From an uncultured Flavobacteriales bacterium (lineage in GTDB: Bacteria > Bacteroidota > Bacteroidia > Flavobacteriales > BACL11): a DNA stretch of 64,000 nucleotides. Position numbers and translations under genes: made by a program. The stretch covers positions 6,123-70,122 of the forward strand of contig CASIBH010000002.1 of the NCBI GenBank assembly GCA_949372805.1. The letters are read 5' to 3'. The notes under the pieces were generated by a model. It worked only from the letters and a program-made list of their open reading frames with translations, ran no database searches and was not told the origin of the DNA. Positions 7,318-36,308 of this stretch are shown piece after piece (position 1 is the first letter of the stretch; each line of letters starts with the position of its first letter).

Positions 7318-10300
7318 ATGAAAAAAATACTATTTTTTTTACTTATTTTTTTAACTAATCTCACTCTGTTCTCTCAAAATACAGCACAAGTAACATTTCA
7401 AGTTGATATGAGTGCGGTTACAGATCCTTTTACGACTCCTGAAGTTAATGGAAATTTTAACTCATGGTGTGGAAATTGTTGGGCTATGTCTGATTCAAAT
7501 GGGGATAATATTTGGGATGTTGTAGGTACAATTAATATTAATACTGATTATGAATTTAAATTCTCTGCAGATAGTTGGGGAATTCAAGAAAACTTACTTC
7601 CTGGGTCGCCATGTACTGTAACCAATTTTGGATTTACAAATAGAACTTTAAATGTTTCTGGTGATACTCTTTTACCTGCTTTCTGTTGGGAGTCATGTCT
7701 TGATTGTGGTTCAGGTCCTTCTTCATATAATGTAACATTTGAAGTTGATATGCGTCAAGTTACAGACCCATACACTACACCTGAGGTTAATGGTGATTTT
7801 AATAATTGGTGTGGAAACTGCTGGGCTATGTCTGACAGTAATAATGATAGTATATGGGAATTTACTACAATCTTTGCTCCTGGAGATACTTTAGAATATA
7901 AATACTCTGCTGATAACTGGAGTATTCAAGAAGATCTTGATTCCAATCTGTCATGTATTATTATCAATTATGATCCTTCAGCTCCAAATGGCTATGGCTA
8001 TGTAAATAGACTTTCAGTCATAAATAGTGATACAATTATATCCAGTAGCTGGAATGCATGTTCAAACTTGACTAGTGGGTGTACAGATTCTTTGGCATCT
8101 AATTATGATTCCTCTGCTAATTCCGATGATGGAAGTTGTTTATACAGTGTAGTTTTTAATGTTGACATGAATTGTGATACTTCAACATTTAGTTTTGTTC
8201 ATCTTGAAAGTCCATATTTTGGTTGGTGTGGTGGATGTGTTCCAATGTCAGATCCAGATGGAGATGGTGTTCATACGGTAACTGTTGATCTTCCACTTGG
8301 GGATTTTGAATACAAATATGCTGTAGATAGTTTTGTAGGTCAAGAAAATTTAATTGACGATATGGTAAATGGAGGTAGTTGTGCTCCAATTACAGACTAT
8401 AGCACATATGCTAATAGACAATTAACAGTTTCTACTTCTACTTGGAACTTAGTTTGGGAAGAAAATTTTAGCGGAACAACACTAAATGATTCTGTCTGGA
8501 CACATGAAATTGGCAGTGGAAGTCAGTATGGACTTTGGGGCTGGGGAAATGGAGAGCAGCAGTTTTATCAGCCTTCAAATACAGAAGTTAATAATGGTAA
8601 TCTAAAAATAACGGCACAGCAAGAGCCTAATGGGCTTGTTGACAGTTGGGGTAATACATATAATTTATCTTCGTCAAGAATTATGTCAAAAGATAAAATG
8701 GAGTTCCGATATGGAAAAATTGAGGCAAGAATAAAAACTATTAATGGAGAAGGTTTTTGGCCTGCGTTTTGGATGCTTCCCTCTGGTGGATCTTGGCCTT
8801 GCGATGGTGAAATTGATATTATGGAGCAGTGGGGTTCAGACCTTCCTACAAATAGCACAACTGGAGCGGCTCATATTGGATCATGTCCTGGAACAAGTTC
8901 ATATAATAGCTTTAATCACAACAGTACCAATGGAAATTATGCTGATGATTTTCATACTTATGCAGTTGTATGGCAAGAAGATTACATTGCATGGTATGTA
9001 GACGGGGTAGAAGTACATTCTATTAGTCCCTCAAGCTTCTCATCAATTCCTGGCCAGCACAGTTGGCCTTTTAACTCTAATCAGTGGTACTTGATAATTA
9101 ATCTAGCTATAGATCAAAATGGACCAAATGGAAACACTCAGTTCCCCTCTTCAATTGAAGTAGATTACATAAAAATCTATGATAACAGCGTTAATAATTC
9201 TCAATCACCAAATTATAATTCTCAAACGGGCTTAATTGCTAATGATGTGTATGGGTCATGTGATTCTTGTGTAACATCTGGATTATCACTTACTCAAATT
9301 GATTTACCTATTTCTTGGGATGATTCAACAGTAAATTATACAACCACTCCATTTGGAGGAATAAATTCTAGTGTTATCTCCTGACCCGCTTGATTCTACA
9401 AATAACGTTTTAATGACAGATAGAACTGCTGGATCACCAACTTGGGCAGGTACAACTTTAAGTACTCCAAACGGTTTGGCTAACGCTATTGCTTTTGCAA
9501 GTGGATCTACTAAAATAAGTGGCAAATATTTATTCTCCCTTTTTTGGAGTTGTTGTAAGGTTGAAAGCTGAAGACCATACGGATCCAACAAAGTCAGTAG
9601 AAACTGAAGCGACTATAACTACAGCTAACGGTTGGAGTACATTGGTATTTGATTTTTCTAATGAGGCTCCAGGCACTGCAACAATTGATTTTAGCTATAA
9701 CTATGATATGCTATCTATATTTTTTGATTATGGAAATGTTCCATCTTCAAGTACTATATATTATTTAGATAGTGTTGCTTTTGGAGACTTTATTTTTGGT
9801 CAAAGTGGTTGTACTGATCCAAATGGCATCTAACTATGATCCAATATGCAACCTATGGACGATGGTTCATGTTTTACATGAATTGTTCAAACCCTGTTCC
9901 CTCTGGATTATCCGTTAACTGGACAACAGATACTAAAGCGTCAGTTTCATGGGATAATATGAATGATAGTGCATGTATGGTATTCAAATACTTTATAAGA
10001 TATAGAGTTGACAACTTAGATGGTACCTATGGTAGCTGGGTGACTAAGTCAGCAGGAGTTGGTAATGGTCTATGTAACTTTGGTCTTAATACCACTGAGA
10101 AGAGATTACAGTTCTTAACGCTGCAACTACTTACCAGTTTAAGATGAAAGCTTTCTACTGTGGTGGAACGGAATCAGGATATTCTTCCCCTGCAAGCTTT
10201 ACTACTGGAGCAGATTGTCCTCCAATGACTAACTTAGGTGTACAAACATTTAATGGGAATCAAGCTAAAGCTACATTCTCTTGGGATACTACAGGAGCTT

Positions 10301-10813
10301 ATGTTTTCGCAAGAATTGCATTAAGAGTTGATACTACAGGTGCAGCTTGGGGAACAGCTGGTGGATTTGGTATTTATTACCCACACTATCTGTTAATAAG
10401 TTTGGGCTAACTCCTGGACAGTCATACAGAGCTCAAGGAAGAACATTCTGTGATTCTAATGTTACATCTTATAGATCAACGTGGACGACCCCTGTACTGT
10501 GGACACAACCAGGAACATTGATTAAGAATGGAGGCGGATCAAGTCAGATCAATAACTTAGATGTTTACCCTAACCCATCAAGAGATGTCTTTAACATAAG
10601 CTTTGTATCTCAGAGGAAATACAAGAGCTTAAGAATTAGAGTGATCAATCATAATGGGAGAAGTAAGTGTATGACAGCAAGAGCATAGAGCAGTTTATTG
10701 GTGAGTATACACTAAGCAGATAGACTCTAACTAGATAATTCTAAGGGAGTTTACTTCTTAGAGATCACAATCAAATAATGCGGTAGTAAATAGAAAAACT
10801 AGTTATTCAGTAA
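7318..10813 (+). CDS. Multidomain T9SS-secreted GH16 beta-1,3-glucanase (laminarinase-like); several indels in the 3' part split it into at least 6 ORF fragments (~1,160 aa when joined)
   Basis: Signal peptide; three VTF.VDM...MSD..GD..Y.YK CBM/Ig-like repeats; GH16 WPAFWML and EIDIME catalytic motif; QIDLPISWDD module; GCTD linkers; FN3-like cassette; NNLDVYPNPSRD...GVYFLEI...KLVIQ* CTD ending at TAA 10811-10813. Fragments at 9371, 9519, 9836, 10144 and 10347 match the intact paralogs in order. Confidence 0.85.
9881..10813 (+). repeat. Shared C-terminal cassette, copy A (FN3-like pair + T9SS CTD)
   Basis: Long near-identical DNA runs with 33084-34001 and 35388-36308, e.g. attcaaatactttataagatatagagttgacaacttagatggtac is shared with copy B. 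Confidence 0.9.
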
Positions 10814-12323
10814 TTTTTTTTTAAGAAATAGAATTTAAGGAATGCATTAGCAGATTTTGCTAGTGCATTCTTTTTTTCATCCTTCATTTTGTCAAACATA
10901 TTAATCATAAATTTCATTCGTATATTTTTCTTAAATACCTCTCTATGATTATTTATAAATCTCCAGTATAGACCATCCCAAATATTCGTCCATTCCCCCT
11001 TGGTATTAAAGTCACTCATTTTCTTAATTATAGTTGCTTGAGCTTATGTATGGTTTTGTAGACATAATACCACCGTCCGAGAATTGACTCATTCCGTACA
11101 CATTTGGAACCATTACCCAGTCATAAGAATCTATAAATAATTCCATAAACCACATATATACTTCATCAGGGTCAAAACTCACATAGGAGCATGAAATTAC
11201 CTAATACCATTAACCTTTCAATGTGATGACAATAACTCTTATCTAATGTTTTTTTCAATAGCGGTTGTCTACAGGTAATATTCCAGTAGTTGCATTGTAA
11301 AATGATTTAGGAATCTTTCTTTTAAAGCCAAAGAAATTATTTTTTTCTTTCAAATGATCCTTTAAATATATAAATACCTCTAATAAATTCTCTCCACCCA
11401 ATTATTTGTCTTATAAAACCCTCAAGAGAATTAATAGGAACAAGATTTGAAAACTTTAGTGATTCATTAACTACAACATCAGGTGTTAATAGGCCAGTAT
11501 TTAAAAGAGGGGAAATTTAAACTGTGATTAAGAAATATTTCTTTTTCTACAATTGCATCTTCATAGACGCCAAATTCTGAAAATCTATTTTCTAAAAATT
11601 CCTTCAACCATTCTTTTGCTTGAGTAAATGAAGTTGGATATTGTGGGATTTCAGGAATTCTACCAGGGTTGTCTTTTAAAATGAAGTTTAATATAAGATA
11701 CTGCTTCTGTAAAGTATTTATCAGCTTGTAATTCTTTTATTTTTGGAGGGATTTTATTTTTGGGATATTTTTTTCTATTTTCTGAATCAAATGTCCATTT
11801 TCCACCTTCAGGTTTTCCATCTTTATCAATTAATATTCCATGTTTTTTTCTCTGCTCAGTGTTAAAATGATGAATGTAAAAATTTACTTTTATTATTTCC
11901 AAAAAATTTATCAATCTCAGCAGTAGAATTAAGAAACATTGGACTTTCAAGAATTTCTATTTCAATATTATTTTGATTAGAATAATTATGAATTCTAGAA
12001 TCAAGATAATTATCTTACACAGTTAATGTAAATGATATTATTAAACTTTTCTTTTTTTAAATTTATAATTAAATTTCTTACATCACTAAGTTTAGTTTTT
12101 ATTTTCAATATATGTGATATCTATATCTTTTTCTTTTAAAAAATTCATAGTAGAATTTCATCGAAGAGCGATGCATAATTAGTTTTTGGACATGAAACTT
12201 ATATTGACTAAAAAAAAGGGGCTCTTCAATTAAAAAAAACTCACCTTTTTTTTCTAGTAATGGATTTATCTCAAATAATTGATGTGGGAAAATTAAAATT
12301 GCTGTTTTAGTATCTTTATTCAT
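10807..12323 (-). CDS. Cryptochrome/photolyase family, bacterial (6-4) photolyase type (PhrB/CryB/PromaPL-like, COG3046); frameshifted in this sequence
   Basis: N-terminal LIFPHQLF...EE.LFF....FH.QKL..HR.SM; P.GGKWTFD.ENRK; [17 protein letters not shown]; [28 protein letters not shown]; C-terminal WDGLYWRF. Several indels, e.g. an extra T in gagttttgac near 11175. Confidence 0.85.
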
Positions 12324-13422
12324 TTAATCTAGATTTTTTAAGTTCCTTTTTTAGCTTTATTCCAATATTTAAAAAATGAAGTATAATTACCTTTAACATT
12401 TGTTAGCCAATCTCTACTTTTCTCTATTTCCAGTGTAGTGTGAGTTTAAAGGATGTTCTTTGTAGTAAATATTATTATTAATTATAAGTTTTGTAAGCTC
12501 AGTATATTCGCCAGTAAAAATTTGAATATTTTCTATGTTTTTTGATAGCTCTAGCATAAAATCCATACATTTTTTGCTTATGGGATGTTTTTCAAAAATA
12601 CTTGGCTCAATAATTAGTATTCTATTTGCTTTGTTCACAGTCCTCCACAATGGGTCAAGATTATAATAATTATAAACACAAGTTTGAATATTTGGATTAA
12701 TAATTAATTTATCACTTTTTGGTAAAATTGTTTTTTTCATCAAATAAAATTCTTTCCTCTAGTTCATTGGGAACAGACATATCTGTTATTTTTTCATAGC
12801 TATGATCTAAAAATGTATTTCTTTGATTTGAATAAGTATATTTATTAATATTTTCTTGATTGGCATAGTACTTTTTATTGCTATTTGCTCCAGCAACCCA
12901 CTGCCAGGCTTAATGAATTAGATGCTAAATCTCCATCAAGAAGATAATAATACATCCATTTAGCTGGATTTCTCCAGTTACTTTTGGAAATATTACAACA
13001 AATTGAAGCTATATACATTCTTAAATGATTATGTATGTATCCCGTTTCATATAAACCATTAATTACACGATCAATGATTTCAATTCCTGACTTTGCTTTA
13101 GTAATATTTAAAGAGATTTCATTATTACTTGTATCTGGTTGAAGTCTTTTTAAATCTGTATTGATATCATTTGCCTAACCATAATAATTGCCAATAATCT
13201 CTCCATGCAAGCTCCTGCACAAACTTTTCTATTTCACTTAAATCATATCCTTTTTTAATACAGATATCGTATATTAATTTTGTTGAAATAACTCCTCCTT
13301 GAAATATATGGAGATAAGTAGGTTACATCGCCATCTATAAAGTTTCTGTTTTTACAATACTTTTTAGGTGAAATGTTTTCTACTCTCTTAATGATATCTT
13401 TGTAATTAGTAGGGAAATTCAT
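12324..13422 (-). CDS. Short photolyase with N-terminal FAD-binding domain (NewPHL/SPL-like); frameshifted in this sequence
   Basis: Manual translation from ATG 13422: MNFPTNYKDII...KTRNFIDGDVTYLSPYI..GVIST...FVQELAWRDYWQ...LYETGYIHNHLRMYIAS...LLDGDLASN...WQWVAG, followed by the small C-terminal domain (ORF 12414-12743). The stop at 12324 abuts the next ATG. Confidence 0.8.
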
Positions 13423-13502
13423 CTATGTATAATTTAGTGCTTTAAAAAGTTATACAAATTTAAATAATCTATATTTGAAATGTTATTTTTATAAAATAAA
13501 AT

Positions 13503-14526
13503 TTGAAAAATTTAATATTAATCCTATTGTTATTACCAATTTTTTGCTTTTCTCAGCAAACTATTTATTCTAATGTTAATCATAATGGTATTTCTAGAGA
13601 TTATATTCTATATGTACCTCAATCATATGATTCTAATGTTAAAATTCCTTTAGTTTTTTCGCTTCATGGTAAATCTTTAACTAACGTTATAAATATGAAT
13701 ATTACAAATTTTAATGATATTGCTGATACAGCAAATTTTATTGTTGTTTACCCTCAGGGAGAATTAGATGTTTCTTTAACTACTGGCTGGAATGTTGGTT
13801 GGTCCTTCTCAAGTGGGGCTGATGATATTGGATTTATTGATACTATTTTAGAAATTATTTCTTTTCAATATAATATTGATCTAGAAAGAGTTTATAGTAC
13901 AGGTTTTTCAAATGGTGGCTTTATGAGTTACTTACTTGCTTGTCAATTAAGTGATAAGATTGCTGCAATTGCTTCTGTAGCAGGAACTATGACAAATGAC
14001 ACCTACAATAATTGTAATCCAATTCATCCAACTCCTATACTACAAATTCATGGTACAAATGATCTTGTTGTTCCTTACAGCGGTGATCAATCGAAGAAAT
14101 CCGTTGATGTTATTTTAGAATTTTGGAGAAATTATAATAATTGTTCTCTCAATCCAATTATCTCTAATCTTGCAGATATATATATTCTTGATCTGTCCAC
14201 TGTAGATCATTTTTTATTTGAAAATGGAGATAACGGAGTAACAACAGAGCACTTGAAAATTAATAATGGAGGTCATGAATGGCCTGGTTCTTGGGGGTAA
14301 TATGGATATTGACGCTAGTATTGAGATTTGGAACTTTTTCTCTCGATATAATATAAATGGACTGATCTCTAATGTTTCCTCATTATCCATTGATCAGAAC
14401 TTTCAAAATAGATCTCTTATTAATATTTTGGATTTAAATGGTAAAATCACTTCTTCTGATGAAAATAAGCCATTATTTTATTTGTATAGTGATGGGTCAA
14501 TAGAAAAGAAAATTATTATTAAATGA
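13503..14526 (+). CDS. Secreted PHB-depolymerase/LpqC-like alpha/beta esterase with short C-terminal tail; one indel near 14295
   Basis: PLVFSLHG, FIVVYPQG, GFSNGG nucleophile elbow, IHGTND, GGHEWPG. Removing one G from TGGGGGTAA joins ORF 14266-14526 (W-G-N-M-D-I-D-A-S). Confidence 0.85.
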
Positions 14527-14939
14527 TTAAACAACTTATAATTTTAAATATAATATTTTTACTTTTCCGTAATTTTGGATGTAATAAAACATTTACTGAA
14601 AACTGTATGACTGATAGATATTACTCTTCTTCCTTTCACAAATATAATAATGGTTATAGATATACTCAAAGAGAAATTTCTACCAATTTTTCTGAAGAAG
14701 ATTTTAATCAATTATTTAAAGAATCTAATCTTAGTTGTAAAGAAATTCTTACAAAATATTTTTATTGTAATATATGTTTTAACTCTGCTCAAGAACATAT
14801 AATTTCCTATAATGGAAATAAAATAATACTTGATTCTACAAATAGTGTTATTGACTTTACAGAAAATATATTATCAATTATTGCTAATATGCAAACAGGG
14901 GCCCTAGAGTATGATGATTTTAATAGTATTAATCCATAG
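14523..14939 (+). CDS. Hypothetical exported protein
   Basis: 138-aa ORF with hydrophobic N-terminus; overlaps the stop of the upstream gene; several Cys including YCNICF. Confidence 0.6.
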   Translation: MIKQLIILNIIFLLFRNFGCNKTFTENCMTDRYYSSSFHKYNNGYRYTQREISTNFSEEDFNQLFKESNLSCKEILTKYFYCNICFNSAQEHIISYNGNKIILDSTNSVIDFTENILSIIANMQTGALEYDDFNSINP

Positions 14940-15000
14940 ATTATTTTAATTAAATTATATTTTTGTCTATAATAAATAATCAAATTAAATACATATAAAA

Positions 15001-15531
15001 ATGAAAAAAAATATTTTATTATTATCAATTATTACAATTCTATTCTCATGTGGGAATGAAGTGCAAATGGAAGTTGGGGAGACGCCAAAAAATATTATTG
15101 GCTATGAAGTTAGTGATGCAGGGGAGAAAATATCTCTTTACAGTGGAGACATGTCTACTGTTGAAGTATGGGAAAATTATTTAACTGCACATAATGCTGC
15201 GGACCTTGACGCTATTAAGCTTTTAAATGCTGAAGACATTAAAGTTTGGGCCCCAAAGGGTGAGTATATTAATGGGTCTGATGCTCATATTGAATTTCTT
15301 ACTGCTTGGTTTACAAATAACACTCCAAAATGGAAAACTAAATATATGATTGCCAATGAAGTTACAAAGGGTGATGTTTTAGAGCAGTGGGTTACTTCTG
15401 GTCATGATTTAACTTTAAATGTAGAAGGAGACGTGATTAATGTTTTTCAAGTTCATGACGCATTAATTGTTGACGGTAAAGTTCAAAAATTTTATGTCAA
15501 TGAAAGAGTTGTTTTAGATTCTAAAGAGTAG
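15001..15531 (+). CDS. NTF2-like lipoprotein
   Basis: Lipobox LFSC; W..Y..AHN..D...I......D..V..P.G..I.G...H..FL..WF pattern. Confidence 0.7.
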   Translation: MKKNILLLSIITILFSCGNEVQMEVGETPKNIIGYEVSDAGEKISLYSGDMSTVEVWENYLTAHNAADLDAIKLLNAEDIKVWAPKGEYINGSDAHIEFLTAWFTNNTPKWKTKYMIANEVTKGDVLEQWVTSGHDLTLNVEGDVINVFQVHDALIVDGKVQKFYVNERVVLDSKE

Positions 15532-15553
15532 TAAATACATTAAGTTATTATAG

Positions 15554-15589
15554 AAACCTTGTAAGTATATACTTACAAGGTTTTTTTTT
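15554..15589 (+). terminator. Intrinsic terminator
   Basis: AAACCTTGTAAGTA-TA-TACTTACAAGGTTT followed by a T-run. Confidence 0.8.
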
Positions 15590-15618
15590 AAACATTCACA
15601 AATATATTTTTTAAAGCT

Positions 15619-15626
15619 TAAATTTG
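15619..15626 (+). promoter_or_regulatory. Bacteroidota -7 element
   Basis: TAAATTTG ending 24 nt before the 1417-aa gene. Confidence 0.55.
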
Positions 15627-15649
15627 TATATTAAAATTTTATACTAAAT

Positions 15650-18600
15650 ATGAAAAAATATACCTTCTTTCTTCTTGCATTTCTTTCTTTTACAATAATC
15701 TTTCATACAACAGTCTGTGCCAGAGTTATAAATATTCAAATCAACACTTTATCTAATGGGTCTGAAATAAGCTGGGACCTTTCCGATTCCTCTTCAATCA
15801 TTTTAATTTCTGGTGGTTCTTATGTTTCTGACACAACATATAATAACTATATTGATCTTTCAAATGGTTGCTATGATTTAAATATGTATGATTCATTTGG
15901 AGATGGATGGAACGGTGGTAATTATTCTATTATAGATTCTTTAACAAGTAATGTATTATATTCTGGAGGTCTATTAAATGGATCTTTTGGATCTGATCCT
16001 CTTTGTTTTGGTCCTTCTGGATGTACTGACCCTAATGCAACAAACTTTGATACCAACGCAATTGTAGATGACGGTTCTTGTACATATTTTACATGTACTG
16101 ATCTTGTTTTAACTATGAATGATTCATATGGTGATGGGTGGAATGGAAATGATTTTTCATTGTTTGATTCAAATGGAAATTTATATTTTACATCAACTCT
16201 AAATAATGGTTCTTTTGGTCTTGACTATGTATGTTTACCAGATGATTGTTATAGTGTAACCTGTAATGGTGGTTCTTGGCAAAATGAAGTTTCTTGGACT
16301 CTTGCAGATACAAACGGGATTGTTTTGCTTTCTGGCGGAGCTCCATTTAGTGGCTCAATATGTTTTCCAACGATTTATGGTTGTACAAATCCTCTTGCTA
16401 ATAATTTTGATTCTTTAGCTAATGTCGACGATGGTTCATGTCTTTTTGACTGTATTGACTCAGATACTTCTGAGAGTTTTGAATCTGGTCAGGGATTTAC
16501 ATGGATGTTAGATCCAAATAATACTGTTGATTGGACTAATCGCTCTGGTGGGACTCCATCTAATTCAACAGGTCCTTCATCAGCTTTTGATGGTTCATTT
16601 TATATGTATACTGAAACTTCACCTACAAGCTCATGGAATAAAGATGCTATTATGTATGTTCCCTGTATTGATGTAAGCGCTTGGACTCAATTAACATTTG
16701 TATTTGCATACCATATGTATGGGTCAGATATTGGTGATTTAAGTATTGATGTTTCATCTGATAGTGGAGCGACTTGGACTCAAGAGTGGACTCTAAGTAG
16801 TAATCAAGGAGATCAGTGGTTTGAAGCATTCGTTGATTTAAGTACTTATTCAGGATCTATTTCTGTTAGAGTGCATGCTGAAACAGGGACTGGGTTTAGA
16901 TCAGATATTGCTATTGATTACTTACGTTTTATGGAAGCCCCAGCTTTTGGTTGTACTGATACCTTAGCATTAAATTATGATACATTAGCAAATTATGATG
17001 ATGGTTCATGTTTGTACCAAACAGGGTGTACTAATCCACTGGCAGATAATTATAATTCTTCTGCAATAATTGATGATGGATCATGTTTATATGGCTGTAT
17101 TATTGCTGATACCTCTGAGAGCTTTGAATCTGGTCAAGGGATCACATGGGAATTAGATCCTAATAATACAGTTGATTGGACAAACCAAAGTGGTGGAACA
17201 CCTTCATTTAACACAGGCCCCTCAGCAGCTTTTGATGGCTCTTATTACATGTATACTGAGGCTTCATCTGGAAATGATAATAAAGAGGCTATTATGTATG
17301 TCTCATGCGTTGATCCTCTTGCATGGAATCAATTATCTTTTGTTTTAGCTTATCATATGCGCGGTACAAATATGGGCTCCTTAACTGTTGATGTTTCAAC
17401 AGATAGTGGAACTACCTGGATTCAGGAATGGACTATTTCAGGAAGTCAGGGTAACCAGTGGAATGAAGTACAAATAGATTTAGGTGCTTACACCCAAGAT
17501 ATATCAGTAAGAGTTCATGCTCAGACAGGTAATGGTTATAGTTCAGATATTGCTATTGATCTTCTTAGATTTGAAGAATACCCTGTTTCTGGATGTATTG
17601 ATCCAACAGCTTCTAATTTTGATCCCTTGGCAACAATTGATGATGGTTCTTGTTTGTATAATGGATGTACTGATGTTTATGCTGCTAACTATTGTAGTGG
17701 TTGTAATGTTACCGATAACACATTATGTATATATTATTTGTGTAGTGGTCTTAATTTTACAGATAATTTTGAAGGAAATAGTTTGTCTTCAAATGGATGG
17801 ACTGCATTTTCTGGGTCTTCAGCTTCTGTTACGCTAACAAGCTCAAATTCTATAGCTGATAGTGTAAGTGTAGAATTTGAAGGGGGCTCTGGAGGTACAT
17901 GGTCGGGCTATCAAACGGAATCAGATGCCTATGCCAACACATTACATATTGCTTCAGTATCAAAATGTATTGATTTTACTACAATAGGAAATAATGATTC
18001 TATAGCCCTAACTTTTGAAACGAAAATGTATTCTGGCTTTTTAAGTGAGTATTCTTGGATAAGAGTAAAAGTTGACGGTAATGTTATCTCTGATAATTTA
18101 GGGAATACTTCATATAATAATTTAACCCTTCCAATAGATACTTCTGTTGATAATACACTTTTAGTTTATGATCTAACTGCATTTGCAGGTGGGGATCATT
18201 ATATAACTTTTGAATCTGTAAATAAATATGGTGCCGGCTCTGGGTCATTAAATAATGTCTGGATAGATAATGTAAATTTTGCAATCAATTTAATTAGTGG
18301 ATGTATAGATACAAGTGCTGTTAATTATAATTCATTAGCACAGGTTGATGATGGATCTTGTTTATATACATGCTTTAATAATTCAATTTACTATTCAATA
18401 GAAACTGATTTAAATCCTTTAGAGTGCTCATGGGATATATCTGATATTTCAGGTAATATTCTTTTTTCATATGGTAATTATTCTGCTCCACAAACAATTG
18501 AAAATGATTCTTTTTGTATTGTAGATGGTTGTTATATATTAAATCTTTATGACTCTGCTGGTAATGGTTGGGGCTCAGGAAATTTCGGAAGTGTTTCTTT

Positions 18601-19903
18601 ATTTGATAGTATTGGAACAATCCTTGCAAATGGAACATTAAATAATGGCTCTAACTCAACTTTTGGTTTTAATATAGGAAGTTGTAATCTTCAAAACCCT
18701 GGCTGTACAGATAGTCTGTCATCCAATTATAATTTATTAGCTGATATTGATAATGGTAGTTGCTGTATTGATGGATGCATGGACTTAGCATCCGTAAATT
18801 ATGATTCTTTGGCTACATGTGATGATGGTTCTTGCTTACCATTCATTTTTGGATGTACAGATGCAAATGCATTAAACTATTATCCTGGTGCCAATGCTGA
18901 TGACGGTTCATGTATTTATGCTGGATGTACTGATTCAAGTGCAAATAATTATAACCCTAATGCATCTATTGATGATGGTTCATGTACTTACTCTCAATCA
19001 TGTTCATCACCTAAACCTTCAGGTCTTAATGCTTATGATATAATTGATACTAGAGCCAAAATATCTTGGGATAATATGAATGATTCTTCATGTTTAGTAT
19101 TAAAATATTTTGTAAGATACAGAGAGGTTGGAACTAATTCGTGGACTACAAAATCTGCTGGTGTGGGTAATGGATTATGTGTGTTTGGTCTAAATACTGT
19201 GGAAAAACAACTTCTAAATTTAAGTGCAAATACTTTATATGAGTTTAAGATGAAAGCGTTCTATTGTGGTGGAACTTCATCTAATTATTCTTCTCCTGTT
19301 CAGTTTTTAACTTTAGATGATTGTCCAGAAATGACAAACCTTTCTGCTCAAACTTTTAATAATAATCTAAACAAGGCTAGGTTTTCTTGGGATACAACTG
19401 GTTCATATGTTTTTGCACGAATTATTTTAAGAGTAGATACTGTTGGTTCTCAGTGGCAAACTGCTGGAGGTTTTGGAGTTTATTTCCCTACTTTTAATGT
19501 TAATAAATTTGGTTTAAGTTCAGGAGAGTCATACAGAGCGCAGGGGAGAACATTTTGTAATTCAAATATAACAGCATACAGATCTCCTACTTGGACAACA
19601 CCAATTTTCTGGACACAGCCCGGAAGTATTAAGTTAATCGGAGGTGATATTATAAATAACTTAAACGTTTATCCAAACCCTTCTTCTGGTAAATTCAGTG
19701 TATCATTTATAAGTGAAAAATTACAATCTTTAGAAGTTTCAATTTCAGATGTTATGGGCAAGATTATTTATAAGGAAGTTAGAGAAATTTTCGTGGGAGA
19801 ATATATTAAGACTATTGAAATTAATGATCATAGTAAGGGGCTGTACTTTTTAGAAATTAAAAATGATATAGGAGTTATTAATAAGAAAATTATTGTTCAG
19901 TAA
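15650..19903 (+). CDS. Large T9SS type A cargo, adhesin-like: DSxGDGWNG modules, two MAM domains, jelly-roll module, 11 GCxD linkers, FN3-like cassette, CTD
   Basis: Signal peptide; MAM motifs TPS..TGP..A.DG..YMYTE, F.YHM.G..G.L, QG..W, SDIAID; C-terminal VYPNPS...GLYFLEI...KKIIVQ. Confidence 0.9.
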   Translation: MKKYTFFLLAFLSFTIIFHTTVCARVINIQINTLSNGSEISWDLSDSSSIILISGGSYVSDTTYNNYIDLSNGCYDLNMYDSFGDGWNGGNYSIIDSLTSNVLYSGGLLNGSFGSDPLCFGPSGCTDPNATNFDTNAIVDDGSCTYFTCTDLVLTMNDSYGDGWNGNDFSLFDSNGNLYFTSTLNNGSFGLDYVCLPDDCYSVTCNGGSWQNEVSWTLADTNGIVLLSGGAPFSGSICFPTIYGCTNPLANNFDSLANVDDGSCLFDCIDSDTSESFESGQGFTWMLDPNNTVDWTNRSGGTPSNSTGPSSAFDGSFYMYTETSPTSSWNKDAIMYVPCIDVSAWTQLTFVFAYHMYGSDIGDLSIDVSSDSGATWTQEWTLSSNQGDQWFEAFVDLSTYSGSISVRVHAETGTGFRSDIAIDYLRFMEAPAFGCTDTLALNYDTLANYDDGSCLYQTGCTNPLADNYNSSAIIDDGSCLYGCIIADTSESFESGQGITWELDPNNTVDWTNQSGGTPSFNTGPSAAFDGSYYMYTEASSGNDNKEAIMYVSCVDPLAWNQLSFVLAYHMRGTNMGSLTVDVSTDSGTTWIQEWTISGSQGNQWNEVQIDLGAYTQDISVRVHAQTGNGYSSDIAIDLLRFEEYPVSGCIDPTASNFDPLATIDDGSCLYNGCTDVYAANYCSGCNVTDNTLCIYYLCSGLNFTDNFEGNSLSSNGWTAFSGSSASVTLTSSNSIADSVSVEFEGGSGGTWSGYQTESDAYANTLHIASVSKCIDFTTIGNNDSIALTFETKMYSGFLSEYSWIRVKVDGNVISDNLGNTSYNNLTLPIDTSVDNTLLVYDLTAFAGGDHYITFESVNKYGAGSGSLNNVWIDNVNFAINLISGCIDTSAVNYNSLAQVDDGSCLYTCFNNSIYYSIETDLNPLECSWDISDISGNILFSYGNYSAPQTIENDSFCIVDGCYILNLYDSAGNGWGSGNFGSVSLFDSIGTILANGTLNNGSNSTFGFNIGSCNLQNPGCTDSLSSNYNLLADIDNGSCCIDGCMDLASVNYDSLATCDDGSCLPFIFGCTDANALNYYPGANADDGSCIYAGCTDSSANNYNPNASIDDGSCTYSQSCSSPKPSGLNAYDIIDTRAKISWDNMNDSSCLVLKYFVRYREVGTNSWTTKSAGVGNGLCVFGLNTVEKQLLNLSANTLYEFKMKAFYCGGTSSNYSSPVQFLTLDDCPEMTNLSAQTFNNNLNKARFSWDTTGSYVFARIILRVDTVGSQWQTAGGFGVYFPTFNVNKFGLSSGESYRAQGRTFCNSNITAYRSPTWTTPIFWTQPGSIKLIGGDIINNLNVYPNPSSGKFSVSFISEKLQSLEVSISDVMGKIIYKEVREIFVGEYIKTIEINDHSKGLYFLEIKNDIGVINKKIIVQ

Positions 19904-20012
19904 AAGTTAATTTACTTTTGGATCAATAAGATTTACTATTTGCTGCTAATCTGATTTATTATTTGATGTAAAAAAAAATTGTATATTTATTAAATATTAA
20001 AAACTAAATCTA

Positions 20013-21461
20013 ATGAAAAAAATATTATTTGTAATTGCTTGTTTTTTAATCTCTTATAGCTCTAGTGCTACCCATTTAATGGGCGGTCAGATATCTACTT
20101 CTTATATTAGTTCAGATTCCTCTGGAGCGTCCTTATATACTGTAGAATTAGATTTATATAGAGATACTATTGGCGTTGATGTTGATCTAAATCAAGATCT
20201 TGATATCTATCAATTAGATCCTTTTACAGGTATTTACAGTCTTTTATATTCTATGTCTCCAGATTTTGACACTACAACTGGTGGTCTTGTTAATTCCATC
20301 TCTGTTTATGGAGTTGAGGTGTATAGATTTGTTGACACTCTTTCATTTGCTTCAGATGGTTATTATAAAATTGAATGGACTCAGTGTTGTAGAAATTTTG
20401 CAATTGTTAATATGTCTAGTCCTGGAGCGGAATATATGGATTTATCAACATATGTAAATGTTGATAGTGCCGATCCTAACTCTTCACCTTTATTTTTAAC
20501 TCCTCCTGTTGCTTATTTACCTATAACACAACTTTGGAACTACAATCCACTCCCTTTTGATCCCGATGGAGATTCTTTGTCATGGTCGTTAGTTGATCCT
20601 TTAAGTAGTGGTGTGTCTGTTATGGGGTATGAATCATTATCTGATACGCTATTATATTCTGATCCAGCTGGAGTCTTTTCTTTAGACTCTGTTACTGGCG
20701 AGATTTCATGGCAAGCAACAATGGTTGGTAATTTTGTTATTTCTCTAATAATTGAAGAATTTAGAAATGGAATTAAAATTGGAGAAATGAGAAGAGATAT
20801 GCAGTTTATAACTGTTGTGCCAGATTCTAGTTCTATGCCACAATTTTCTTACATTCAAAATCTTCCTGCCAATTCTGCTGGCTATCCCTATGTAAAGCTT
20901 CTTTATGGCCAAAATTATCAATTAGATTTGATAGGAAGTGATAATGATCCTGGAGATATTTTAACTATGGAAGCATATGGAGAATCTTTTGGTTTAAATA
21001 ACTCATCTTCTTTATTTAATAGTTTCCCTTATGGAAGTGGTAATGATATAATGGGAATGTTTAATTGGTCTCCTGATTTCTCTCATGTAAGGCCAGAGCC
21101 TTATATTAATGTCTTTAGAGTATCTGATGGTTTATTTACTTTTGATGCTACAATACAGTTTGAAGTTGTTTCTTCACTAAGTTCTTTAAATGAATTTGAA
21201 GGAGTTACTGTTAATGATATATATCCCAACCCTTCAAATGGAAACTTTATTTTATCTCTAAACCTTGATAAACCCCAAGAAATATATGTTGAAATATACA
21301 ATTTGCTTGGGCTGGAAGTCTCTAAACAAAAAATAAATTTATCTTCCGGGAACCATATATTATCTAGAAACAATCATCTTTCTAGTGGTCAGTATATAGT
21401 CAATATTTTAAATAATAGAGGGGTATCAATTACATCTAAAAAGTTAATTGTTACTAATTAG
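20013..21461 (+). CDS. T9SS type A cargo of unknown function (ATHxMGG.I N-terminal family)
   Basis: Signal peptide; ATHLMGGQI, CCRN, NSSP.F..PP, DPDGDSL and RRDMQF motifs; IYPNPS...GQY...KKLIV CTD. Confidence 0.8.
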   Translation: MKKILFVIACFLISYSSSATHLMGGQISTSYISSDSSGASLYTVELDLYRDTIGVDVDLNQDLDIYQLDPFTGIYSLLYSMSPDFDTTTGGLVNSISVYGVEVYRFVDTLSFASDGYYKIEWTQCCRNFAIVNMSSPGAEYMDLSTYVNVDSADPNSSPLFLTPPVAYLPITQLWNYNPLPFDPDGDSLSWSLVDPLSSGVSVMGYESLSDTLLYSDPAGVFSLDSVTGEISWQATMVGNFVISLIIEEFRNGIKIGEMRRDMQFITVVPDSSSMPQFSYIQNLPANSAGYPYVKLLYGQNYQLDLIGSDNDPGDILTMEAYGESFGLNNSSSLFNSFPYGSGNDIMGMFNWSPDFSHVRPEPYINVFRVSDGLFTFDATIQFEVVSSLSSLNEFEGVTVNDIYPNPSNGNFILSLNLDKPQEIYVEIYNLLGLEVSKQKINLSSGNHILSRNNHLSSGQYIVNILNNRGVSITSKKLIVTN

Positions 21462-30821: not shown

Positions 30822-30828
30822 TTTTTAA

Positions 30829-31884: not shown

Positions 31885-31915
31885 TTTCCTCCTATTTATT
31901 TTTGAAATTGAATTT

Positions 31916-33007
31916 ATGGATATAAAAATTAATAAATTATCTTCTTTTGTTGATGGCCTTAAAAAACCTCTAATCATTGCTGGTCCTTGTAGTGCTGAGA
32001 GTAATGAGCAGCTTATTTCTACTGCCAGAGAATTAAAGAAAAATTCTATTAATATATTTAGAGCAGGAATCTGGAAACCAAGAACTAGGCCTAATAGTTT
32101 TGAAGGTGTTGGAGTTAAAGGTCTTCAATGGCTCAATAATGTTCAAAAAGAAATAGGTCTAAAGGTAATGACTGAGGTTGCCAATGCAAAGCATGTTGAA
32201 CAGGTTCTAAAGCATGATATTGATATGCTATGGATAGGAGCGAGGACTACAGTTAATCCTTTTGCTGTTCAAGAAATTGCTGATGCTCTTAAGGGAGTTG
32301 ATATCCCCGTTTTTATTAAGAACCCTATCAATCCAGATATGAATCTCTGGCTTGGTGCTATAGAAAGGTTATCAAATGTTGGATGTGAAAATTTAGTTGC
32401 TGTTCATAGAGGTTTTTTCTCCTATGGATCAAAGAAATATAGAAACCTCCCTCATTGGCAGTTACCCGTTGAGCTTAAGAGGTTAATCCCTAATATTCCA
32501 ATTATTTGTGATCCAAGTCATATTGCAGGCTCTAGAGATCTTATCCAGTCTGTTTCTCAGAAAGCCATAGATTTAAATTTTGATGGTTTAATGATTGAGA
32601 CCCATATAGACCCTGATAATGCTCTCAGTGATAAGAACCAGCAAATAACTCCTTCCTTTCTTAATAACCTATTATCTGAGCTAGTTGTAAGACATAAATC
32701 TATAGATGATAAAGAGTTTGCCCTTTCCCTAGAGGAATTAAGAACTAAGATTGATTCATTAGATAATGATTTGATCAATACTTTAATGAATAGAATGAAC
32801 ATAGCAGAGCTTATTGGTAAGCACAAAAAAGAAAATGATGTCACAATCCTCCAGCCTCTAAGGTGGAAGTATATTCTTGAGAATAGAACTATCAATGGAA
32901 TTGATAGTGGATTAAGTAAAGAATTTATGACCTTATTATTAAGAGCTATTCATCAGGAATCAATTAATATTCAGACTGGTGTCATGAATAATAGAAAGAG
33001 AAAATAA
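31916..33007 (+). CDS. Bifunctional DAHP synthase (class I-beta) / C-terminal chorismate mutase
   Basis: IAGPCSAES, WKPRTRP, IGAR, DPSH, GLMIE.H..PD.A.SD; C-terminal LR..ID.LD...R...IG..K AroQ domain. Confidence 0.95.
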   Translation: MDIKINKLSSFVDGLKKPLIIAGPCSAESNEQLISTARELKKNSINIFRAGIWKPRTRPNSFEGVGVKGLQWLNNVQKEIGLKVMTEVANAKHVEQVLKHDIDMLWIGARTTVNPFAVQEIADALKGVDIPVFIKNPINPDMNLWLGAIERLSNVGCENLVAVHRGFFSYGSKKYRNLPHWQLPVELKRLIPNIPIICDPSHIAGSRDLIQSVSQKAIDLNFDGLMIETHIDPDNALSDKNQQITPSFLNNLLSELVVRHKSIDDKEFALSLEELRTKIDSLDNDLINTLMNRMNIAELIGKHKKENDVTILQPLRWKYILENRTINGIDSGLSKEFMTLLLRAIHQESINIQTGVMNNRKRK

Positions 33008-33031
33008 ATACTCTTCCAAATATTTAACAAT

Positions 33032-33065
33032 AAAAAAAGCCTGAATGTGAATCCAGGCTTTTTTT
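33032..33065. terminator. Bidirectional intrinsic terminator
   Basis: AAAAAAAGCCTGAAT-GTGA-ATCCAGGCTTTTTTT between convergent genes. Confidence 0.8.
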
Positions 33066-33083
33066 ATCTTTAATTTTTTATTT

Positions 33084-34001
33084 CTATTGAATAATTATTT
33101 TTCTGTTCACTACATTATTATCTGTAGTTATCTCTAAGAAGTAAACACCTTTAGAATTATCTGTTAGATCAATCTGCTTAGTGTATTCACCAATAAACTG
33201 CTTTGCATTTTCTTCATACACAACCTCGCCCATGATATTTATTACTCTAACACTTAAGTCTTGTATTTTTTCAGATGTAAATCTTATGTTAAAGATATCT
33301 CTGGATGGGTTAGGGTATATATCTAAGTTCTTAATCTGACTTGTAGACTCCATTCTAATAAGTGTTCCAGGCTGTGTCCACATAAGTGGTGATGTCCAGG
33401 TGGATCTAAAAGATGTAACATTAGAATCACAGAATGTTCTTCCTTGAGCCCTATATGACTGTCCAGGAGTTAGCCCAAACTTATTAACAGATAGTGATGG
33501 GTAGTACACACCAAAACCTCCAGCTGTTCCCCAAGCTGCACCTGTAGTATCCACTCTTAATGCTATTCTTGCGAAAACATACGCTCCTGTACTGTCCCAA
33601 GAGAATGTTGCCTTAGCTTGATTTGAATTAAATGTTTGTACAGCCAAGTTAGTCATAGGAGGGCAATCTGCTCCAGTAGTAAAGCTTGCAGGAGAAGAAT
33701 ATCCTGACTGCGTGCCACCACAGTAGAAAGCTTTCATCTTAAACTGGTAAGTAGTTGCAGAAGTTAAGAACTGTAATCTCTTCTCAGTAGTATTAAGACC
33801 AAAATTGCATAGTCCGTTTCCAACTCCTGCTGACTTAGTCACCCAGCTACCATAAGTACCATCTAAGTTGTCAACTCTATATCTTATAAAGTATTTGAAT
33901 ACCATACAAGAGTTATCGTTCATATTATCCCATGAAACTGACGCTTTAGTATCTGTAGTCCAGTTTACAACTAGACCAGAAGGAACAGGACTAGCGCAGT
34001 T
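33084..34001 (-). repeat. Shared C-terminal cassette, copy B
   Basis: High DNA similarity to copies A and C by eye; protein NCASPVPSGL...WTQPGTL...KIIIQ. Confidence 0.9.
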
Positions 34002-35198
34002 TATGTATGTACATGAACCATCGTCACATCCTGCTAGCGGGTTATAGTTATTAGCTAGGGGATCCATACATCCGGGGATAGCATATATGCAGCTTCCATC
34101 ATCCATTGTTGCGCAGGGATTATAGTTACAAGTATTTGGATCAGTACAACCATATAGTGAATAGCAGCATGACCCATCATCTACATTGGCATTTGAATCA
34201 TAGTTTAAAGCTGTAGTATCTGTACATCCATTAAATAAGCACGAAGCATCATCTACTGTTGCTAGTGAGTCATAATTTGAGGCTAAAGAATCTGTACAAC
34301 CAAAAACTGGTGGGTGATGAGCAATAATTACTCCTTTCATTCCCATGCTAACATGTGGCTGACATACATAATAGAATGTATGGCAGTCATCTGGAACGTA
34401 GTATCCAGTAGATCCATAGCCATAGCTAAAACCTCCTTGTAAAGGCGTGCTGCCATTATTTATCCATGTTGAGTCACTTACTTCCACAGCATTATGATAT
34501 CCTCCTAAAATAAAATTAATGGTATCTCCAACATCACAAACAATTGTGTCGGGAGAAAATGTCATTCCCACTGTTGTTATTGTGTAAGAAGAATAATCAC
34601 ATGATCCATCATCTACATTTGCAAGAGAATCATAATTTAGAGCTAAAGAATCCATACATCCAGGAACTGGGGGAGTCCATGCTGCTATGGCATTATCTAA
34701 TAAACTTTCAATATTTCCAGCTGAACTTGTTGAAACACAATATTGTGGGCACATGGTCGTGTATGAACTGTCTGGGTAAATAACATAGAAACTTGGGGTA
34801 TAATATAGTTGATAATTAATTCCCGTTGGAGAAACATTATCTGCAATTGGAAAACTACCTCCATGTGCTGATTGAAAATTTACGATATCGGTGCTATCTG
34901 TATTTGCATTAATCTCTAGTCCTAGAAACCTGGCTACATTAGATCCACTAGGACCATTTGTTAGGTAGGAGCTTTCAACATGAGGGGCATACTGTATGCA
35001 GTGCCCACATGTAGTGCTCAGTAGTTCTAGAACAACAACAAAACCACTATCAAGATAATCATATATTGTGTGTGATGTGCCATTTATATCTGTGACAGTA
35101 AAATTTGGGGCATAGCCTGTTCCATCAAGTCTTCCTTGTTGAGAATAAGAGGTTAACGTAATGACTATTAAACTTATTACTAGAGCAATTTTTTTCAT
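33084..35198 (-). CDS. T9SS cargo: CxxC redoxin domain + cupredoxin domain + 5 GCxD linkers + FN3-like cassette + CTD
   Basis: APNFTVTDING...TTCGHC (TlpA/redoxin-like); FSPDT...GDTI.F...HNA...YVCQPHVSMGM (blue copper); IYPNPSRD...GVYFLEI...KIIIQ. Confidence 0.88.
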   Translation of the reverse strand: MKKIALVISLIVITLTSYSQQGRLDGTGYAPNFTVTDINGTSHTIYDYLDSGFVVVLELLSTTCGHCIQYAPHVESSYLTNGPSGSNVARFLGLEINANTDSTDIVNFQSAHGGSFPIADNVSPTGINYQLYYTPSFYVIYPDSSYTTMCPQYCVSTSSAGNIESLLDNAIAAWTPPVPGCMDSLALNYDSLANVDDGSCDYSSYTITTVGMTFSPDTIVCDVGDTINFILGGYHNAVEVSDSTWINNGSTPLQGGFSYGYGSTGYYVPDDCHTFYYVCQPHVSMGMKGVIIAHHPPVFGCTDSLASNYDSLATVDDASCLFNGCTDTTALNYDSNANVDDGSCCYSLYGCTDPNTCNYNPCATMDDGSCIYAIPGCMDPLANNYNPLAGCDDGSCTYINCASPVPSGLVVNWTTDTKASVSWDNMNDNSCMVFKYFIRYRVDNLDGTYGSWVTKSAGVGNGLCNFGLNTTEKRLQFLTSATTYQFKMKAFYCGGTQSGYSSPASFTTGADCPPMTNLAVQTFNSNQAKATFSWDSTGAYVFARIALRVDTTGAAWGTAGGFGVYYPSLSVNKFGLTPGQSYRAQGRTFCDSNVTSFRSTWTSPLMWTQPGTLIRMESTSQIKNLDIYPNPSRDIFNIRFTSEKIQDLSVRVINIMGEVVYEENAKQFIGEYTKQIDLTDNSKGVYFLEITTDNNVVNRKIIIQ

Positions 35199-35254
35199 AA
35201 TGATATTTTATAAATAAATTTTTATCGAAGATATTAAATTTTTATTTAAGATAT

Positions 35255-35365
35255 AAAAAAAACCCCTTAGAGAATTACTTACTCTAAAGGATTTTTAAAT
35301 TATTATCCTATATAGATAGGATGGTATATAAAAAAAGAAGCCCGAACTAATGTCCGGGCTTCTTT
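35255..35365 (-). terminator. Tandem intrinsic terminators downstream of the giant gene
   Basis: Minus strand: AAAGAAGCCCGGAC-ATTA-GTTCGGGCTTCTTTTTTT, then a small ATCCTAT hairpin, then CCTTTAGAG..CTCTAAGGGGTTTTTTTT. Confidence 0.8.
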
Positions 35366-35387
35366 CAAATTTAAGAACTGATTATCC

Positions 35388-36308
35388 TTATTGGATGATT
35401 AGTTTCTTATTCACCACACCATTAGTAGTTGTGATTTCTAAGAAGTAAACACCTTTAGAATTATCTGTTAGATCAATTTGTTTAGTGTATTCACCAACAA
35501 ACTGCTCTAACGCTTCAGTATAAACAACCTCACCAACTACGTTGATTACTTTAACCTCAAGATCTTGAATGTCTTCTGAAACAAAAGTTACATTGAAGAT
35601 ATCTCTCGATGGGTTAGGGTAAACATCTAAGTTATTGATTGTGTTTCCACCTTCAAATCTTATTGGTAGAGTACCTGGCTGCGTCCATGTAATTGGAGTT
35701 GTCCATGTAGATCTATAAGATGTAACGTTAGAATCACAGAATGTTCTACCTTGAGCTCTGTACGACTGTCCAGGAGTTAAACCGAACTTGTTAACAGTTA
35801 GTGTTGGGTAGTAAATACCGAATCCACCAGCTGTTCCCCAAGTTGCACCTGTAGTATCAACTCTTAATGCAATTCTTGCGAAAACATAAGCTCCTGTAGT
35901 ATCCCAAGAGAATGTAGCTTTAGCTTGATTTCCATTAAATGTTGCAACACTTAAGTTAGTCATAGGAGGACAATCTGCTCCAGTAGTAAAGGTTGCAGGA
36001 GAAGAATATCCTGATTCCGTTCCACCACAGTAGAAAGCTTTCATCTTAAACTGGTAAGTAGTTGCAGCAGTTAAGAACTGTAACCTCTTCTCAGTTGTAT
36101 TAAGACCAAAGTTACATAGTCCGTTACCTACACCAGCTGACTTAGTCACCCAGTTACCATAAGTACCATCAGAATTCACAACTCTAAATCTTACAAAGTA
36201 TTTGAATACCATACAAGAGTTATCGTTCATATTATCCCATGATACTGAAGCTTTAGTATCTGTAGTCCAGTTAACTGATAGTCCAGATGGAACAGGACTT
36301 GCACAGTT
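35388..36308 (-). repeat. Shared C-terminal cassette, copy C
   Basis: High DNA similarity to copies A and B; a diverged fourth copy lies at about 19001-19903. Confidence 0.9.

Follow-up and report, generated by a model that had tools for sequence, protein, structure and literature searches.

How do genes with unrelated beginnings come to end in closely similar DNA, and what would such a common ending do for the proteins that bear it? The question is raised by a stretch of 64,000 nucleotides from an uncultured Flavobacteriales bacterium (assembly GCA_949372805.1, contig CASIBH010000002.1, positions 6,123-70,122 of the forward strand), hereafter the window. Three of its genes, A (a GH16 and CBM48-like protein), B (an AhpC-TSA-like redoxin joined to a cupredoxin) and C (a giant MAM-domain protein), have N-terminal parts that are unrelated according to Pfam and the same C-terminal segment according to DNA alignments, as the preliminary description of this DNA had recognised. 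A tblastn search of all 25 contigs of the source assembly (G000; 1.17 Mb, 64% complete) found at least six genes bearing this tail, four in the window (A to D) and two on other contigs (E and F); a prime (A' to F') marks the orthologue in the congeneric genome G001. The tail, about 310 amino acids long, consists of two divergent, cysteine-containing fibronectin type III (FN3) domains, a flexible linker some 20 residues long, and a type-A C-terminal domain (CTD) of the T9SS, the type IX secretion system. Within each genome the FN3 pair evolves in concert, whereas the CTD of each gene follows its own course.

Concerted evolution of the FN3 pair

Over the whole tail, pairs taken from copies A, B, C, E and F agree at 82-90% of their nucleotides, and pairs from A, B and C alone at 83-86%. 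In the FN3 pair (the first ~640 nucleotides) identity among the five is 87-95%, with 70-89% at third codon positions, and in the CTD (the last ~230 nucleotides) it is only 64-81%, so that calling A, B and C almost identical, as had been done, was an overstatement. Copy D stands apart, at about 65% nucleotide and 63-65% amino acid identity to the others, in agreement with its earlier portrayal as a diverged fourth copy. Pairs of copies share identical DNA runs of 41-140 nucleotides; the long runs noted earlier between A, B and C are indeed there, at 48-87 nucleotides against means of 27-30 for shuffled mismatches, a shuffle that ignores the rate differences between FN3 pair and CTD. The ~0.92-kb cassette of fixed length proposed for them was not recovered: depending on the pair, the shared segment starts from about 940 to about 1220 nucleotides before the stop codon and holds one to four copies of a two-cysteine repeat. 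The similarity of B to C and of C to E starts about 1220 nucleotides before the stop, and between the tandem neighbours B and C it extends ~55 nucleotides past it.

The preliminary description had argued for a mosaic from short motifs shared two by two among A, B and C. All the motif-sharing patterns that it listed are present in the translations, but we rejected three-way sharing as evidence of mosaicism, since without an outgroup such patterns are singletons, and they are mostly uninformative because the shared motif is mostly the private change of the third copy. For example, the A+C motifs are all private changes of B, and the A+B motifs IRYRVDNLDGTYGSW and PASFT turn into changes private to C once E and F are added. 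From that argument one pattern survives, GAAWG, which is a true split of A+B from C+E+F.

The comparison with G001, which is syntenic with the window over 28,956 nucleotides at 87.5% identity on a 441-kb contig and carries orthologues of A to F, separates the two parts of the tail. In the CTD, orthologues are closest (C-C' 0.98, E-E' 0.97, B-B' 0.90, F-F' 0.87, against 0.63-0.80 for paralogues). In the FN3 pair, on the other hand, copies A, E and F of G000 have an identity of 0.94-0.95 to each other and of only 0.91-0.92 to their own orthologues, and A', F' and C' of G001 reach 0.92-0.94 to each other; paralogues are closer than orthologues for G000 A/E/F and G001 A'/F'/C', not for B and not for any CTD. 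The maximum-likelihood trees of the two parts conflict in the same manner, the FN3-pair tree joining G000 E with G000 F and placing G001 A' and F' with the C clade, and the CTD tree joining E with E' (support 93/100) and F with F' (100/100). Approximately unbiased (AU) tests on the FN3 pair rejected F+F' (p 9e-5) and A+A' (p 1e-3), and on the CTD they rejected the groupings found for the FN3 pair, including G000 E+F. Furthermore, third-position identity within G000 (E-F 0.88-0.89, A-F 0.85-0.87) exceeds that of most of the 21 orthologue pairs between G000 and G001 (0.62-0.91, median 0.74, or 0.67 minus the five module-bearing genes), and homogenisation therefore reaches synonymous positions.

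The same behaviour was seen in a family-wide tree of 47 FN3 pairs, from which G001 F' and G000 A were left out for their frameshifts and one of the two giant-gene copies of G001 was dropped by exact-protein de-duplication. Modules grouped by genome or genus and not by cargo. All A-, B-, C-, E- and F-type copies of the genus of G000 and G001 (g1) form one clade (100/100), which excludes the modules on the counterparts of A, E and F, of the same Pfam architecture, in a second genus, g8 (the species pair G009/G020), as well as those on the counterparts of B and C in G022, a genome of 2 contigs and 99% completeness. Copy D falls outside the A/B/C/E/F clade, together with G001 D' (100/99) and with the g8 copies of D type and M12B type. 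In G022, G013 and G005, copies borne by different cargo are each other's sisters, and there are sister or near-sister copies also within G010 and G024, where the cargo was not identified. In G022, a redoxin gene and an M43 peptidase gene lying 335 kb apart share 833 nucleotides at 97.4% identity without a gap and are unrelated upstream; two genes of G013 share 802 nucleotides at 95.9%.

Gene conversion that homogenises the FN3 pair rather than the whole cassette, acting in episodes and stopping before the CTD, is a well-supported account of these sequence comparisons. The proposal that the cassette is homogenised by recombination holds for the FN3 pair, on the identity matrix, the two AU rejections and the family tree, and fails for the CTD, which pairs by orthologue.

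Fold of the tail and secretion machinery

The last residues of the tail belong to PF18962 (Por_Secre_tail), which, with a cut-off of 27 bits, scores 61.9 on B, 61.3 on C and 48.0 on D (E values from 1e-16 to 1e-12, with 1.1e-16 on copy C). TIGR04183 gives 48.4 bits (copy C) and 50.0 bits against a cut-off of 23, and A, E and F match as well in the genome scan. Pfam fn3 (PF00041) remains under its cut-off of 25 on B (19.3 bits) and C (20.7 bits) and exceeds it in relatives from the family (L062 31.3, L059 31.0 and L065 34.8 bits). A profile built from 25 modules and compared with the PDB matched the FN3 tandems of titin (1.5e-10) and contactin-1 (1.4e-8), together with a T9SS CTD (8glk_D, 8e-6). 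The AlphaFold2 model made from the alignment of these 25 modules (mean predicted local distance difference test score, pLDDT, 83.3) has two beta-sandwiches over residues 1-215, with a pLDDT of about 90 over residues 10-215, a low-confidence linker at 218-238 and the CTD sandwich, and its best PDB matches by Foldseek are FN3 tandems of fibronectin (FN3 12-14), tenascin, contactin and titin (E 4e-12 to 1e-9). Four cysteines, at module residues 36, 98, 117 and 195, are present in 23-25 of the 25 sequences. Of two D-T-T triplets, the one at residue 140 occurs in 17 of these sequences and the one at residue 155 in 15. Since D-T-T fits the motif D(S/T)(A/I/L/V/M/T), given for Bacteroidota O-glycosylation in the part of PMC11611037 that deals with it, these triplets are putative O-glycosylation sites. 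The three T9SS components for which G000 was searched are all there above their cut-offs: the sortase PorU (1276.6 bits), the shuttle PorV (505 bits) and the translocon SprA (2653 bits).

The carriers and their surroundings

The N-termini of the carriers, read from the translations, begin with MKK followed by a hydrophobic stretch. Gene B (33084-35198, reverse strand) encodes 704 residues in the order redoxin, cupredoxin, 24-residue cysteine repeats and tail; its orthologues have 719 residues in G001 and 701 in G022. Tail B occupies 33084-34013, with the FN3 pair at about 33369-33992. The best database match to the FN3 pair of B (96%) lies on an M12B protease (P0001), ahead of an apparent B orthologue (P0002; 704 residues, the same length as B, with cupredoxin and CTD) at 94%. 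This ranking is another sign of stalks moving between cargo types.

Gene C (35388-43377, reverse strand) codes for a giant protein with a MAM domain (E 3e-17) and repeats. In the window it is read as two overlapping open reading frames, 41698-43377 (559 residues) and 35388-41714 (2108 residues), which amounts to one frameshift near 41700, within the overlap 41698-41714; the G022 orthologue is a single frame of 2648 residues. Its tail (35388-36320) is composed of the FN3 pair at about 35676-36299, a linker predicted to be disordered at about 35607-35669, the type-A CTD at 35391-35606 and the stop codon at 35388-35390. Between G000 and G001 the giant gene has a third-position identity of 0.86-0.87, against 0.62-0.79 for most neighbouring genes, which hints at either a recent exchange between species or constraint at the DNA level. 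In G001 there are two giant genes in tandem (contig C2, 123049-139701; L032, L033), each of them split (279+2419 and 1924+741 residues), with tails 99-100% identical.

Gene D (15650-19903, forward strand) encodes the 1417-residue MAM protein, which is paralogous to the giant protein from end to end, and finishes in a diverged tail of an older module subtype (18974-19903). The region around it is rich in secreted proteins, and directly downstream (20013-21461) lies a gene for a 482-residue protein with a T9SS type-A CTD and no other Pfam domain. Upstream of the window, at positions 1-1716 of the same contig, a partial gene with about eight repeats of ~70 residues (…CDSxxTLxLTINNSS…) closes with a type-A CTD, which has 60% identity to the CTD of copy C, and the FN3 pair is absent from this gene. 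Outside the window, copy E (contig C7, 69135-75296) closes a protein of 2054 residues with a lamin-tail domain (LTD) and a cupredoxin, and copy F (contig C3, 29977-32786) closes an M12B reprolysin-like metalloprotease interrupted by two frameshifts. For A, B and C, the tail boundaries given in the preliminary description agree with ours within about 12 nucleotides.

The two-cysteine repeat (about 24-26 residues) links domains in all tail-bearing proteins. Four repeats of 24-26 residues (GCTDxxAxNYDxxAxxDDGSC) stand directly before tail C (36303-36604, reverse strand), inside the segment that C has in common with B and E, and the same repeats stand before tail B (33996-34325, reverse strand); at both places they are of the DNA repeat families D1 and D2. 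Counted by DNA family, the window has 19, 16 and 11 copies, at 33996-34685 and 36303-42956 on the reverse strand, at 16017-18985 and 8075-8139 on the forward strand, and at 62465-62551, and the repeat is present also in the open reading frame 62042-62959. No Pfam family covers it, and a literature text search for the letters of the motif gave nothing relevant.

Copy A lies in a low-quality stretch

Gene A (7318-10815, forward strand) has an open frame with GH16 and CBM48-like domains from 7318 to the stop at 9384 and is broken beyond it into five short open reading frame fragments in shifting frames; the tail (about 9873-10815, by DNA alignment) has at least 13 private indels and no open frame, contrary to the preliminary description, which had read through the breaks without mention. 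To window positions 7000-20000 we aligned Logan contigs that came from four runs of marine metagenomes, each of a different study (X1-X4, of which X1 matches best and may be the source sample). From about 9373 to 13500, a stretch that covers tail A and two fragmented photolyase-like genes, the window has single-base insertions relative to natural populations. The bases at 9373, 11028, 11174, 11249, 11263, 11340 and 11516 are absent from the contigs of all four runs, and those at 10839 and 11674 from the contigs of three of the four; 26 further base omissions were recorded besides these. Contig pieces over 10733-14966 show 8-21 gaps, compared with 0-1 over 16513-20000. At the place of the fragmented photolyase-like genes (10807-13422, reverse strand) G001 has intact genes of 495 and 363 residues, and its orthologue of gene A is one frame of 1588 residues with GH16, MAM, SprB repeat, FN3 pair and CTD. 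Next to this stretch, the esterase frame 13503-14300 seems to be continued in another frame as 14266-14526.

Because the insertions of 9373-13500 are not seen in natural populations, the frame breaks of copy A most likely reflect assembly quality and not decay of the gene, which is most likely intact in nature. Copy A looks like a pseudogene and can thus mislead annotation, in surroundings that carry single-base insertion errors. At the same time, the exact junction between the GH16 body and tail A is provisional in this assembly, because none of the listed contig pieces spans 9907-10733 (one X1 piece reaches 9907), and a GH16-plus-tail gene is supported by the G001 orthologue only. Contigs of X2 and X4 part from the window, at 9818 and 9826, where they are joined to other two-cysteine repeat regions. 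Contig depth is higher over the module; depth is not a copy number, and we draw nothing from it. At about 9818-9875 the window is without ~1.2 kb (MAM and SprB repeat) that the G001 orthologue has between the GH16 body and the tail (G001 contig C2, 97331-98568), either by deletion or by collapse at the two-cysteine repeats.

Distribution and cargo

With the FN3 pair as query (E<=1e-5), matches were obtained in 24 of 41 genomes: G000, 22 of the 24 others of its family and the one genome of a second family; another 15 families of the order, each represented by one genome, gave none at the same threshold. There are up to 12 module matches per genome, many at contig ends, and the repeat appears to break short-read assemblies, as also suggested by copy A being unbridged in the listed contig pieces. 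G000 has 39 type-A CTD matches, 38 of them above cut-off, and the FN3 pair accompanies six. By Pfam, the carriers are GH16/CBM48 proteins (with or without MAM and SprB repeat), redoxin-cupredoxins, MAM giants, LTD-cupredoxins, M12B and M43 peptidases with SprB repeats, an LVIVD protein with CarboxypepD_reg, and a protein of 3987 residues with laminin-G and C-type-lectin domains. A database search of proteins of 387-1232 residues returned 256 at E<=1e-10 among 1111 candidates, with many further partner domains and generic names ("T9SS type A sorting domain-containing protein", "M12 family metallo-peptidase", Flavobacteriales bacterium). In three genera the same cargo types (GH16/CBM48, redoxin-cupredoxin, giant MAM, LTD and M12B) bear the tail at the same position, and the fusions are therefore old.

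G022, G013 and G015 have, behind the FN3 pair, a short tail of a different, unrecognised kind in place of the type-A CTD, so the pair has a role that can be separated from this CTD. The alternative tail ends in a sequence like ...LFYIYxDGSVEKKIIIK, occurs on redoxin-cupredoxin, M43 and M12B proteins (L065, L066, L068, L069), and a tail of this type is found also at window positions 14266-14526 and at the ends of open reading frames in G001 (L032). It matched no Pfam or NCBIfam family and may be an unrecognised sorting signal.

A proposed surface stalk under gene conversion, and its rivals

We favour, with a probability of roughly 0.6, a reading in which this is a T9SS export-and-anchor tail with the FN3 pair as a cell-proximal stalk, the FN3 copies being homogenised by gene conversion. 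In other Bacteroidota, as described in part of PMC11611037, PorU cuts off the CTD, and the C-terminus that results is attached to the surface. By analogy, PorU would remove the CTD somewhere in the linker after export, the new C-terminus would be fixed to the cell surface, and the FN3 pair would then become the cell-proximal stalk that holds enzymes and adhesins off the outer membrane, possibly O-glycosylated at the two conserved D-T-T sites. CTD-dependent export, cleavage by PorU and surface attachment are, for the tail-bearing proteins, predictions of this kind. Purifying selection would keep the stalk copies alike enough (identical runs of 41-140 nucleotides) for homologous recombination between genes; repeated non-reciprocal exchange, that is gene conversion, would homogenise them, and the conversion tracts would tend to break off at the edge of the more diverged CTD. 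Homogenisation would in this way come about as a side effect of the high similarity that purifying selection maintains. If so, a defined subset of T9SS cargo in an abundant, small-genome marine Flavobacteriales family would share a dedicated two-domain stalk, distinct from the secretion signal and evolving differently from it, which would provide a testable handle on cargo spacing, anchoring and sorting after CTD removal.

Several points weigh against this reading. As regards conversion, the AU test on the FN3 pair did not reject E+E' (p 0.18), and the clades tested were picked by cargo orthology but after the identity matrix had been seen. Our own implementation of the pairwise homoplasy index (PHI) test, which the earlier argument for gene conversion called for, is borderline for the whole module in five copies (p 0.08); its subsets range over 0.008-0.056 (FN3 pair 0.0075, B/C/E/F 0.0095), and we do not lean on the test for conversion. 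The ten copies of genus g8, in which concerted evolution had been expected to recur, are 62-82% identical in nucleotides and mostly pair by orthologue, with one possible exception (g9_C44/g20_C63, with a CTD identity of 0.83 against only 0.70 in the FN3 pair), and it is because of this that we regard conversion as episodic and not universal. Frameshifts lie inside or at the edges of the module in copy A, copy F and G001 F', the genomes are mostly draft or metagenome-type, in which such repeats can be mis-threaded, and some assembly chimerism may be present. As regards the stalk, its role is suggested by its position and by other Bacteroidota. Anchoring by anionic lipopolysaccharide is, according to the section of PMC11611037 on this subject, established in P. 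gingivalis only, with the mode of anchoring in Cytophaga unresolved. Moreover, a spacer role does not explain why only six of the 39 CTD matches (38 above cut-off) have the FN3 pair, nor why the four cysteines are conserved in 23-25 of 25 sequences.

The rival that survives best takes the FN3 pair for an address or carrier domain and not a passive spacer, recognised by one lineage-specific, co-evolving partner. This partner could belong to the attachment machinery, be a surface glycan or lipid anchor, or lie in the general O-glycosylation system. The clustering of modules by genome and genus would fit such a partner, but neutral gene conversion predicts the same clustering; the retention of the pair before a different tail in G022, G013 and G015 speaks for a role separable from the type-A CTD, and the D-T-T sequons are conserved, but glycosylation is here suggested by a short motif only, and the partner itself is hypothetical. 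We consider this rather unlikely. A more elaborate version, which we consider unlikely, would make the FN3 pair a genome-specific address domain by which all carriers are passed to one co-evolving partner (an anchor, an attachment factor or each other) and displayed as one assemblage on the surface. The glucanase would then be shown there alongside the redox and copper proteins, the proteases and the giant adhesins, gene conversion would be selected for, keeping every cargo compatible with the partner, and the two-cysteine 24-residue repeats upstream and the alternative short tail of other genera would be further parts of the display system.

The preliminary description had gone in another direction, with the FN3 pair as a self-associating docking or polymerisation module through which enzymes and the giant protein co-assemble into a surface lattice or filament, homogenisation keeping the interfaces compatible. 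Selection for one shared interface would indeed give a concerted FN3 pair without a concerted CTD, the four cysteines and many surface-independent positions are strongly conserved, and the pair is on only part of the T9SS cargo (6 of 39 CTD matches). The adhesin modules of the gingipains and HagA form a surface complex. A partial precedent for docking is offered by the way in which these Porphyromonas gingivalis adhesin modules share sequence, as set out in part of PMC5266723. Recombination between similar sequences, however, homogenises them without any selection on an interface, the module is by profile and fold a plain FN3 tandem, and the scan of 23 carrier proteins against Pfam gave no cohesin, dockerin, S-layer or pilin-type family on any of them. 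The giant protein is one of many carriers, and nothing marks it as a scaffold. A homodimer prediction for two FN3 pairs (residues 1-218) returned no answer (score 0.00) and is evidence neither way. What we found is an ordinary FN3 tandem on many cargo types throughout the family, and nothing in it supports a lattice built from the giant protein; we hold docking to be decidedly unlikely.

It is very improbable that conversion played no part and that one tail was recently duplicated or shuffled onto several genes, to diverge afterwards in the ordinary way under strong purifying selection. The cargo is very diverse, the cassette boundaries vary by pair as independent shuffling would give, and the g8 copies largely follow orthology; yet the fusions are old, with the same cargo types in three genera, while the FN3 pairs within each genome are young, and for one and the same set of genes the CTD tree contradicts the FN3 tree. 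Hardly credible, finally, is a mosaic and within-genome similarity produced by mis-assembly of a multi-copy repeat into a chimeric or collapsed consensus: the low-quality stretch of the window includes copy A, frameshifts occur in F at the edges of the module and in G001 F' within it, and many module matches in relatives are at contig ends, but independent assemblies repeat both the architectures and the orthologue-specific CTDs, with 29 kb of synteny on the 441-kb G001 contig, the 2-contig, 99%-complete G022 shows gapless near-identity between distant genes, and copies B, C, D and E read as clean open frames.

Comparison with known systems

The last ~75 residues of every copy score above the curated cut-offs of the TIGR04183/PF18962 family, but that family covers the CTD only, and we found no curated model for the 215-residue FN3 pair or the two-cysteine repeats. 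Gene conversion in bacteria is generally recognised by paralogues closer than orthologues, by adjacent segments with conflicting trees and by long identical tracts. All three hallmarks are present here; unlike in the general case, conversion is confined to two internal domains of otherwise unrelated genes and spares the secretion signal next to them. Our searches of open-access text, with supplements and subscription journals outside their scope, found no description of the FN3-pair tail or of its concerted evolution.

That a conserved module should precede the CTD is unusual only in part, contrary to what had been supposed, since strings of Ig-like or FN3 domains before the CTD are described for T9SS cargo, for instance for the cytophagalysin CPL1 in part of PMC11674741, and an Ig fold before the CTD is described for the gingipains in part of PMC5266723. 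The tail-bearing proteins are like CPL1 and the gingipains in the succession of a catalytic domain, beta-sandwich domains and a terminal beta-sandwich CTD of ~75 residues as the export signal. In the sections of these sources that treat them, the sandwiches are described within single proteins, whereas here one FN3-FN3 unit with four conserved cysteines is common, in nearly unaltered form, to unrelated proteins of one genome.

The closest precedent is provided by the modular tails of RgpA, Kgp and HagA of P. gingivalis, which have C-terminal adhesin domains followed by a conserved CTD and, according to part of PMC5266723, rearrange and exchange these modules by recombination and gene conversion. 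In both systems, as far as that part of the source describes its own, T9SS cargo with different N-termini share C-terminal modules and CTD, with mosaics discordant with the genome phylogeny. The modules of the gingipains and HagA are cleaved-adhesin and DUF2436 domains, neither of which gave a Pfam match on the 23 carrier proteins scanned, while ours are FN3 domains. Furthermore, the exchange in P. gingivalis, as presented there, involves three genes in a single host-associated species and is taken to generate diversity, whereas here a stalk is made uniform over at least six cargo types, in a pattern recurring across a marine family. The tail offers a clean case of conversion acting on two internal domains of genes that are otherwise unrelated, and stopping at the neighbouring signal domain.

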